62,000 nt of DNA from NCBI GenBank assembly GCA_013265495.1, contig MU058065.1:5764302-5826301 (forward strand), in the 5' to 3' direction. A program made the translations under genes and the position numbers. The notes under the pieces were generated by a model. The model was not told where the DNA came from. It worked only from the letters and a program-made list of their open reading frames with translations, and made no database searches. The DNA is from Vicugna vicugna (lineage: Eukaryota). Of the stretch, positions 53,740-59,647 are shown one piece after another. Positions within the stretch are counted from its first letter, which is position 1; every line of letters begins with the position of its first letter.

Positions 53740-55546
53740 TCTGGCCACATCCACGAGACCGAAGCTCGGTTCCATGCTCAGGCTGTTCTCCACATACACT
53801 TCGTACTTGCCGCTGTCTTCGGGCGTGGCCCGGCGGCTGGTCAGCGTCGTGGTGGTGCTGCTGATTACCGAAGAAAACTCTAGCGGGGAAGAGGGGGATG
53901 GCAGGACCTCGAATCAGTTTACGCGCGACCTGGGCAGGACTAATTAGCCAGCTCTGTTCTTCGCCTCCCATTTTCCCGCCCCCGTCCCACTCCTGCGTTT
54001 CTGGGCCCTGTGCCGCCCAAGCTCTGGCTCCAGGCGCTATCCTTGCAGCAGGTCCCCACCCTCCCCTGGCGTCCTCCTCGATGTCTTCGCCGTCCTTGGT
54101 CCAGCCCACGTCCGGCGCAGGCTCGCCCAAGATCTCTGCAGTCAGCGTAACCGTGGTGACTTTGCATGCCTTTGTGTCATTCGGTCCCTTCTGAATCTTC
54201 GCCGGGACTAGAGGAATGGAAAGGGAATGCGACCCATTGAGGCACCTAGAGATAAGATGAGCAGGAGCATCACTCCCCGGCTAATAGCCGGCTCTAAATA
54301 CAAAATGGATTTAGGCTGGCTGTGTGACGTTGGACAAGTCTTTAGCCTCTTTGGGGCTTCAGCTCCTCAACTGTCAAACAGGACTAATCCTGCCCCTCAA
54401 GTTGAATGGAGGAGCAAAAGAGATACTACAGGGTGAAAGCCCAAGAATATTCACACATCTCGCGGTGATTTGGAAATCGCCCTGGGCAGGGAGCCAGAAG
54501 ACTAAAACTCTAAACCTGGCTCTGCCTCTGACTCGCTGTGACCCTGGGGCCCTGGGGTCTAGTGACTGAAGCCCATAGCGGACTTCTTAACCTGGATGGA
54601 ACAGGATCCTAGGGTAGGAAAGGGCCACGGGCGGCCTACGCTGCACCCTGGTCTGTGTCTCGAGCTGTGCTGGGTCTGGGCCACATCCGCGTCCGAACTG
54701 GGTGAGGCCCGACGGTAAACGCGGCTGGACCCGGCTACGCGCCTGCTGGGTGGTGCTGTTCTGCGCGGTGGCACTGCACTCCGGGCGCGCGTACCTTCCA
54801 CGAGGATGCGCGCCAAGTCGGAGCACTGGCCAAAGTGGTTGGTTACGTTAATGCTGTACTGCCCCAGGTCTGCCAGCACGCCATCGCTCACCACCAGTGC
54901 GACTACGTTCGGGTCTCTGAAGACATAGCGATACTTGGGCCCGTCGCGCAGCTCCTTGCCATCCTTGCTCCAGTGGATGAACGGGTCCGGGAAAGCCGAA
55001 GCGGTAAGTCAGCATGGCCGCGCTGCCCTCAATCAGCACCACATCCTTCAGCGGCTCCAGCAAACGCGGCGGCCTCTTCCCGCGCAGTGCCTTCCGGGAC
55101 CTAGCCAGAGCTCCCATGACTCAGTTCTGACCCCTCGCAGTTCTATACATCCATACATGGTCCCCTGCCGATCCCCTCGGCCACTAGACCTTTAAACATG
55201 GGGGAGGGGCAGCCACTCCTAAATTGTTACCCTGATAAAAGTATCTACTCTGTGGGCCACCCTTTCACACCTCAGTAATTGCTCTTTCCTAAGTCCAGTG
55301 ACCCTAGCGGTACATGACACTATGCTCGGCCCTCCTCCATCCCCTAAATGCAAGGATGAGCGTTCTGCAGCTCCAGTTCCCTTTCTCCGGAAGCGGGTTC
55401 TTCAGGCCTCCCCCTCACCTGTGGCCGCGGTAAGAGGCCTGATGCTAGTGGCCACGCTCTGGACCTGGGGGATCGTTGATATCCACGGGACATCCCGGAG
55501 GCAGGGCTGCAGCCGCTGGTTTTTTGGCAGGAGCTGCTTTGGACAT
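53740..55546 (-). pseudogene. SPEGNB: SPEG neighbor (IQ motif plus two Ig domains), disabled ortholog
   Basis: Exons 55546-55419, 55100-54795, 54207-54066, 53879-53740 translate piecewise as MSKAAPAKKP…, …ASYRGHR, SRK…EPLKDVVLIEGSAA…, SAFPDPFIHWSKDGKELRDGPKYRYVF…, …LGEPAPDVGWTKDGEDIEED…, …DSGKYEVYVENSL…VDVA. They carry four indels, a premature TAG (55447-55445), a GT>GG donor (54064) and no stop at the expected position. Location between GMPPA and SPEG fits. Confidence 0.85.
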
Positions 55547-55656
55547 CTGGGGAGCAGAAAACAAAGAAGGGGGTCTAGGCTAACACAGGACTCTGACCTT
55601 CAGCCTTTTCCCTGCAGGTTCAGAACATCCCCTGAAATGGGTGTGTCTAGACTCAC

Positions 55657-55850
55657 CGTGAAGGGACTTGGGTCGACTAACTGGGTAGCAGGTGGCACGG
55701 AGCCCTTCCAGATGGCACAGCAGGATCATGGACAGGTATTTAGCTCCAGGCCCAGGTTTTATACATCACTCCCCTCCTTGCCTTGTTTGATGTGGTTGCC
55801 CCAAGCCCCTGGGGGCCCCTGCCCCCAACCCAAGCAGTCTCTTTATTTAG
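55657..55850 (-). promoter_or_regulatory. SPEGNB: SPEGNB non-coding exon 1 and TATA-containing promoter
   Basis: Donor ACG|GTGAGT at 55657/55656; TATAAAA on minus strand at 55763-55757; A/T-rich CTAAATA elements at ~55737-55744 and 55841-55850; downstream AATAAA at 53663-53658. Confidence 0.5.
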
Positions 55851-58829: not shown

Positions 58830-59647
58830 CTAGGGGTTGCCTGGGTAGGAGCGCAGCAGCACCTTGTGACGGGTGGCAGCCTCAGCCCGGCGGCGCCGCT
58901 GCTCGCCCAGGAACTCCTTGAGCCGGTTGGTGGTGAAGGTGAGCGTCTGGCGGCGCAGCTTCATCAGGTAGGCGTCCTGCAGCCACGGATGGGCCAGACA
59001 GTCCTGCAGGGAGGGCCGGCTCCTGCCAGGCCAAGCCGGGGACCGTAAGCCAGGACAGATGGGCCCCAGACCAGGGCGGGGCCCCACCTGGGCGGGGCCC
59101 CACCCTCCCAGAGATGGGGGCTCCAATCCTGGATTCATCCCTGGTAAGTGATCTTGGGCAACTCTGGGGCTCAGTTTCCCAATCTCTGGAATGAGGACAG
59201 TGATTCTGCCTATGTCCAGGAGTGTTATGGGCTTTAAATGGTAGTAGTACAACCACTTAGTAGTAGTGGTAATAGTAATAGTAATAGTATTAGCAACAGC
59301 AGCCACAGTGTATTATTAGGCATGGGCTAGGCAGGGGCAGGTCATGCTGGGAGGTTGGCAGGTGTGGGACCCACTCACCAGGGATGTACTGAGAGGACCT
59401 TTCGCAAGAAGAGGGTGGCGCTCTGGGACGTGTTGGGGTACAGCTGGAAGGCATCAAATCGACCCCCCACAATGCGAGCCTCTGTTTCCTGGGGGTCTGT
59501 CTCGTAGAACGGGGAGCGTCCACTGAGCCTGCGGTGGAGACAGTTCAACTGACATATGCAAATTGAGGGTTACAGGGCCAGGGGGACATTAGTGTGGGGG
59601 TTCTTAGGGACACAGAGCTCAGAGACAAGGCTACTCGCACCTGGGCA

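Follow-up and report, generated by a model that had tools for sequence, protein, structure and literature searches.

Is the SPEGNB locus of the vicuña a recent casualty of one lineage, or part of an older and wider pattern of loss? The preliminary description of the window (the whole stretch of 62,000 nucleotides of Vicugna vicugna DNA analysed here) had read the interval between SPEG and GMPPA as a recent, lineage-specific unitary pseudogene. Four coding exons lie there on the minus strand (55546-53740), with SPEG on one side and GMPPA on the other, the same SPEG-SPEGNB-GMPPA order and exon number as for SPEGNB ("CAVP-target protein") of jawed vertebrates. The exons are 57-90% identical per piece to the SPEG neighbor proteins of whale, pig, and human, and the open pieces are 83-90% identical to whale, cat, and human proteins. 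With its orthologous syntenic position, parental exon-intron structure, and matching phases, the locus is not a retrocopy; the syntenic place, the parental exons, and inactivating lesions together uphold the diagnosis of a unitary pseudogene. Unlike intact SPEGNB, the copy in the window is broken: it carries four indels, and both a donor and the stop are lost.

Placing exon ends by hand at the orthologous splice sites, we delimited coding exon 1 (55546-55419, 128 nt; ATG, Pro/Ala/Lys-rich N-terminus, and IQ motif), exon 2 (55100-54795, 306 nt where 308 are expected; Ig I-set 1), exon 3 (54207-54066, 142 nt, without indel; first half of Ig I-set 2), and exon 4 (53879-53740, 140 nt where 139 are expected). 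They sum to 716 nt when spliced, where a 238-aa open reading frame plus stop would need 717. A probable upstream non-coding exon with a TATAAA box (55763-55758) occupies 55763-55656, counting from an inferred start site, and is followed by a GT donor at 55655; a homologous stretch occurs in a long cat model. CTAAATA is found at 55850 and 55743 near this exon, and no full MEF2 or CArG consensus was seen there. An ATG at 55729 in the same exon opens an 84-codon out-of-frame reading frame that runs over the SPEGNB start. The longest ATG frame of the spliced sequence, at 84 aa, is out of frame, and with intron 3 retained the longest has 110 aa and begins within the intron.

Using database orthologs as reference in place of the human protein used before, we found all seven lesions of the preliminary description where it had put them, amounting to a stop at codon 34, four indels, a GG donor, and a lost stop, besides one substitution. 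The first is an extra base in coding exon 1 (55472-55467), which is absent from the Camelus models and gives a premature TAG at codon 34 (55447-55445). Base and stop stand as described, but the lengthened C-run held responsible does not, as the 5-C run is unchanged; at this place the shifted frame of the Camelus models gives Arg-Pro-Pro, so that an added T at 55472 is the simplest account, and we reject a homopolymer slip. The second, a -1 at 55441 (55441-55439) in the IQ motif, is common to the C. dromedarius and C. ferus models and leads on its own to a TGA in coding exon 2. The third and fourth (55006-55000) are a -2 at 55000, where the frame moves from -2 to -3, and Cys75 replaced by Tyr (TAC, 55006-55004); the Camelus models skip this first part of coding exon 2. 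Coding exon 3 ends in a GG donor (54065-54064, AG/GGGAGG). Coding exon 4 contains a +1 (53869-53866) seen in the window and absent from both Camelus models, and ends in AGA where the stop is expected (53742-53740), the frame continuing to a TAA (53664-53662) that overlaps an AATAAA signal (53663-53658). That every coding exon is affected therefore holds internally for exons 1, 2, and 4; exon 3 has no internal indel and is hit at its donor alone. The shared -1, whose frame alone leads to a stop, makes the loss secure on the sequences compared.

The preliminary description rightly called the intron 3 donor non-canonical, but had assumed that it derives from GT. Intron 3 is in phase 2; where a product runs on into the intron, the second intron base opens the codon that follows Arg193. 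From a survey of 33 rows we left out 5 ordinary spliced models and 1 gapped model. The 27 scored rows comprise 17 Arg and 1 Gln, which require GC, and 2 Cys, 3 Trp, and 4 chain ends, which fit GT; among the Arg rows are 8 named mammals (chimpanzee, tamarin, a bat, Tasmanian devil, rhinoceros, hyena, and both camels). The mammalian donor is thus probably mostly GC and the change in the window GC to GG, and we reject GT as the ancestral state given that 18 of 27 scored products need GC. In fish, and in two products bearing a cetacean-type residue, the donor seems to be GT. Gene finders often read through this donor, which explains many of the odd SPEGNB models in databases.

The closest database entries among the matches listed are two de novo models, KAB1278437.1 (C. 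dromedarius) and EPY79428.1 (C. ferus); no intact camelid SPEGNB protein is named among those matches. Two scans of metagenome contigs for host DNA turned up no relative. Both begin in the frame shifted by the IQ -1 and regain the ancestral frame at QASYRGH, and they are identical at residues 88-220, so that the window, which differs from the dromedary, falls outside this Camelus pair, as most likely a South American camelid. The dromedary model has also lost the stop and reads on to the same downstream TAA as the window. Over residues 88-238, at least 12 derived amino-acid changes are common to the window and Camelus. Relative to the intact-mammal consensus, the window and the dromedary share 13 changes there, of which M172L probably predates camelids while E105 adds one further shared step, and 12 are private on the two branches combined. 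The shared lesions (the second in both Camelus models, the seventh in the dromedary) and the shared changes indicate that the loss is old and family-wide, predating the split of Old and New World camels, which is dated to 11-25 Mya in the available passages of PMC4884201. The ratio of shared to mean private changes is 1.8-2.3 (95% about 0.8-5), a rough guide, as rates may have changed: its central value would have decay set in some 30 Mya ago or before, its low extreme about 20 Mya ago. The origin of the camel lineage about 55-65 Mya sets the upper bound.

This overturns the claim of a recent loss: lesions and derived residues are common to Camelus, and decay started well before the split. The earlier argument from high similarity and CpG content describes the locus correctly, with a CpG observed/expected ratio of 0.9-1.0 in coding exons 2-4 compared to 0.30 for the whole window, but neither property shows recency. 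Similarity is high because the protein is very conserved, and the high CpG ratio does not date the loss. As an amino-acid proxy for relaxed selection, distinct from dN/dS, the exons differ between window and dromedary at 11 of 151 residues, as against 2 of about 380 in GMPPA (Fisher p 3e-5; 5 further GMPPA mismatches, which fall in an exon wrongly modelled for C. ferus, are set aside). Translated intron 3 differs from Camelus at 3-4 of 62 codons (p 0.76 versus the exons), indicating that the SPEGNB exons have changed at a neutral pace since the Camelus split, and the relaxed selection expected of a pseudogene is borne out. A single syntenic camelid SPEGNB was thus almost certainly inactivated on the camelid stem by the IQ -1, followed by neutral change and further lesions on the vicuña's branch; any transcript there would end at codon 34.

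What was lost? Intact SPEGNB has about 238 aa, and Pfam finds an IQ motif at 30-49 plus two I-set stretches in the cat, gar, and chimaera proteins. Pieces from the window also match I-set, which agrees with the identity first proposed, a muscle protein with an IQ motif and two Ig domains. The best PDB matches of the Ig part are titin and myosin-binding protein C (MyBP-C), and the protein cluster atlas holds SPEGNB's own cluster and general Ig clusters, nothing further. Among cluster representatives, titin-like giants dominate the matches. Seven proteins of 1000-1700 aa carry 15-25 repeats that are 43-47% identical to the SPEGNB IQ region. Intact laurasiatherian orthologs are off consensus at 0-3 of 151 residues, implying strong constraint where the gene is kept. 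The available passages of the papers found that name the gene describe no function. Expression of human SPEGNB is below 3 TPM in tongue and skeletal muscle (PMC9846087, in part), a spliced transcript was measured in pig loin (longissimus) muscle (PMC10137702, in part), and our search of the literature found no report on carnivore masseter or temporalis. A human frameshift, p.Val64GlyfsTer26, has a frequency of 0.058 (5.8%), with homozygotes at 0.005 (PMC11576641); Table 1 of that paper includes SPEGNB, and its available passages contain no comparative or functional analysis.

SPEGNB status elsewhere was read from protein models rather than DNA, with 15 members listed per cluster. Models of full length that have changed little are found in carnivores, bats, anthropoid primates, toothed and baleen whales, aardvark, tenrec, golden mole, elephant shrews, squirrels, gundi (a herbivore), tree shrew, and most marsupials, and full-length models extend to squamates, turtles, a caecilian, coelacanth, bony fish, and sharks; those of crocodilians are partial. 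Damaged, truncated, or "LOW QUALITY" models come from cattle, sheep, goat, musk deer, deer, pangolins, nine-banded armadillo, manatee, porcupine, and rhinoceros, with one frameshifted C-terminus common to Bos, Ovis, and Capra. No bird, frog, mouse, rabbit, horse, or elephant is named among the matches listed, and a search with shorter fragments likewise listed no horse, rabbit, elephant, or mouse protein. Whales nest inside artiodactyls and keep SPEGNB, so the camelid and ruminant losses are separate. "Lineage-specific" therefore fits the inactivating events themselves, but SPEGNB models from many further mammalian lineages look damaged. Unusual models come from tamandua, tammar, two lemurs, and pig, the last with two one-residue gaps and 12 changes. 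Changes or gaps are raised in Pteronotus, the tammar, the two lemurs, and the pig, which would predict loss of masticatory myosin there; such loss is reported for kangaroos in the literature available in part.

An old, family-wide unitary pseudogene is an ordinary kind of event, and the interest of this one is that the repeated loss fits that of MYH16, the masticatory myosin. In the available passages of PMC12906968, PMC11050549, and PMC6402096, MYH16, like SPEGNB, is repeatedly pseudogenised in grazers and ant-eaters and retained in carnivores, bats, most primates, squirrels, aardvark, and dolphins. For MYH16 we relied on Dataset S3 of PMC12906968, whose 57 species comprise 33 that have lost the gene and 24 with it intact; the comparison was chosen post hoc, once the pattern of SPEGNB loss had been seen. 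SPEGNB could be scored in 23 rows, three of them via a congener (Pteropus, Trichechus, and Balaenoptera); the other 34 (24 MYH16-lost, 10 intact) have no listed model. By these protein models SPEGNB is damaged in 7/9 MYH16-lost and 0/14 MYH16-intact species, an agreement in 21 of 23 species (p 1.5e-4, the species being related and the comparison post hoc). With Tamandua and Diceros dropped as unclear, p is 0.001, and by lineage, in our own grouping, damage is found in about 6/8 versus 0/9 (p 0.002). The other 13 genes of Dataset S3 agree with SPEGNB status in 10-18 of the 23 species. Aardvark and dolphin keep both genes; in pangolins, Dasypus, cattle, and manatee both are damaged. On the discordant side, the SPEGNB frames of blue, Rice's, and gray whale are complete at 238 aa, whereas minke and right whale are without MYH16; the partial tarsier model is well conserved despite MYH16 loss; and the model of the gundi, a herbivore, is intact. 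Camelids are absent from the 57 species of Dataset S3, and no paper on camelid MYH16 was found in the literature searched.

A second line of evidence comes from a pit-viper venom-gland library of 8696 ESTs rich in muscle transcripts. In the passages available, Table 1 of PMC1525187 lists superfast myosin with 47 reads, an atrial/embryonic light chain with 29, calglandulin with 81, and a CAVP-target-like cluster with 15 reads that matches the human protein at E 8e-96, a co-abundance in one library that has no other-muscle control. A look through the supplements of another snake study did not turn up SPEGNB. The muscle around the venom gland derives from the jaw adductor. Calglandulin, which we take to be CALML6, is abundant in this library full of jaw-type muscle transcripts and may stem from the muscle around the gland; the PMC1525187 authors, in the passages available, take it as gland-specific. 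Literature available in part reports MYH16 together with MYL4 in cat masticatory fibres, MYH16 expression in toothed-whale jaw tissue (bioRxiv 10.1101/2023.05.25.542234, whose available passages do not name SPEGNB), and masticatory myosin in sharks, crocodylians, and turtles (PMC12906968 or PMC11050549), groups in which SPEGNB models also occur (partial in crocodilians). The nine supplementary files of PMC6386725 contain none of six search terms, MYH16 included, which makes this blank a weak one.

We propose that intact SPEGNB would be an intracellular muscle adaptor, composed of a Pro/Ala/Lys-rich N-terminus, an IQ motif, and two titin-like I-set domains. The IQ motif may bind a Ca2+-binding EF-hand protein, calmodulin or calglandulin/CALML6, and the Ig pair a myofilament protein, so as to link the EF-hand partner to the myofilaments; by analogy with myosin light chain 1, the N-terminus may touch actin. 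SPEGNB would work mainly in MYH16-type jaw-closing fibres, tuning these high-force fibres, and selection would lapse when a lineage swaps them for slower grinding or tongue-feeding muscle. In cud-chewing ruminants, slow or cardiac myosins replace masticatory myosin according to the available passages of PMC11050549. The two genes differ in kind: MYH16 is a motor with proven expression in jaw closers, whereas SPEGNB is a small, predicted adaptor that this reading would place there. The amphioxus calcium vector target protein (CaVPT) is, we take it, a muscle protein of similar layout, with a Pro/Ala/Lys N-terminus, an IQ motif, and two Ig folds, bound by an EF-hand protein. NCBI gives the CAVP-target name to many SPEGNB orthologs; orthology with CaVPT is putative. 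Given that amphioxus is jawless, a masticatory role of SPEGNB would be a later restriction.

The reading we favour, modestly probable on the comparisons above, is that SPEGNB belongs to a masticatory-fibre programme and decays once that programme is abandoned. That the camelid loss is one of several parallel losses following loss of the programme, with camelid MYH16 loss assumed, is rated just on the likely side of even. For the fullest version we see an even chance: SPEGNB would be a component, so far unrecognised, of the masticatory ("superfast") sarcomere of vertebrates, structural or Ca2+-signalling in role and probably partnered by calglandulin/CALML6 as its EF-hand protein. Mammals would have eliminated it together with MYH16 at least 6-8 times, with the camelid stem one of the earliest cases, and its loss would now be under way in humans after the hominin MYH16 frameshift.

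Less probable, though still a serious contender, is that the camelid stem lost a general gene of skeletal muscle for which there was little need, whether by chance or along with herbivory, and with no special masticatory tie. SPEGNB is indeed not strictly jaw-bound, given the transcripts in pig longissimus and in human tongue and limb muscle and, unlike MYH16, its persistence in teleosts. It likewise outlasts MYH16 in baleen whales and probably in the tarsier, humans tolerate its homozygous loss, and diet could drive the losses of the two genes separately. Yet none of the 14 scored MYH16-intact species has a damaged model, the herbivorous wombat and fruit bats among them; damage spans grazers and ant-eaters, which have jaw change in common but not diet; MYH16 fits SPEGNB status better than the 13 other oral genes; and the near-invariance of intact laurasiatherian orthologs speaks against a weakly needed gene.

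Compared with the masticatory reading, it is very unlikely that the locus keeps a non-coding or regulatory function, as a transcript or as a CpG island beside the GMPPA promoter. TATAAA, upstream donor, and AATAAA are all retained and the coding exons are rich in CpG, but an unmethylated island keeps CpG without selection, divergence from Camelus is as fast in the exons as in intron 3, and Rfam has no match in the window. Six RNA (or guessed RNA) runs hold word shares of 0.10-0.29 and give no evidence of transcription.

That the lesions are assembly errors in an intact SPEGNB is extremely unlikely: although lesions 1, 5, and 6 are seen in the window only, lesions 2 and 7 and the shared substitutions recur in independent Camelus models, the neighbouring genes are clean, and the word shares of public sequencing runs exceed what errors would leave. 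Of 24 public runs, 14 hold 0.97-0.99 of 250 sampled words, 11 of these being marked as a possible source of the DNA; about 0.92 would be expected if all seven lesions were errors and about 0.96 if only lesions 1, 5, and 6 were. Since these three touch just 3.8% of the words, a share of 0.97 does not confirm them; for lesions 3 and 4, confirmation from outside this assembly is indirect. As first described, the six flanking genes are free of lesions: GMPPA (420 aa), CHPF (775), TMEM198 (360), ASIC4 (539), and the 3' parts of OBSL1 (396 codons) and SPEG (293 codons) form spliced frames without internal stop, with AG/GT intron ends except for one GC donor in ASIC4 (intron 8, minus strand, 17911-17910, GAG/GCAAGG), whose 539-aa frame is intact. 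Protein lengths presumably agree with those of the human neighbours. De novo database models join SPEG to SPEGNB (chimpanzee, hyena, and gray whale) or SPEGNB to GMPPA (C. ferus). Within the window, a stop at 58830 and an AATAAA signal belong to SPEG itself, and we reject the fused models as real proteins; they are probably annotation artefacts, with SPEG read-through transcripts remaining conceivable.

The literature searched, which left most subscription papers outside, yielded no account of camelids losing SPEGNB or of a tie between SPEGNB and MYH16; TOGA loss tables probably flag the gene. A rate-based screen for diet signals that drops pseudogenes has a blind spot here: Pollard 2024 (PMC11694762, Table S3), whose alignments exclude pseudogenes, scored SPEGNB null (rho -0.087, p 0.44). 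Humans lack MYH16 and, with a common frameshift allele, would be at an incipient stage of SPEGNB loss. In this they resemble cases of human polymorphic pseudogenes lost repeatedly elsewhere, such as GBA3 (PMC7360587, in part), where a segregating human loss-of-function allele likewise accompanies parallel losses. By itself a camelid pseudogene is routine, and this one is of value as a route to what an orphan human gene does. Should the co-loss with MYH16 hold true, SPEGNB would gain a tissue, the jaw-closing muscle, as well as a role open to testing and a candidate partner; a new component would be added to the masticatory programme, and the human frameshift allele would acquire an evolutionary cause tied to the human loss of MYH16.
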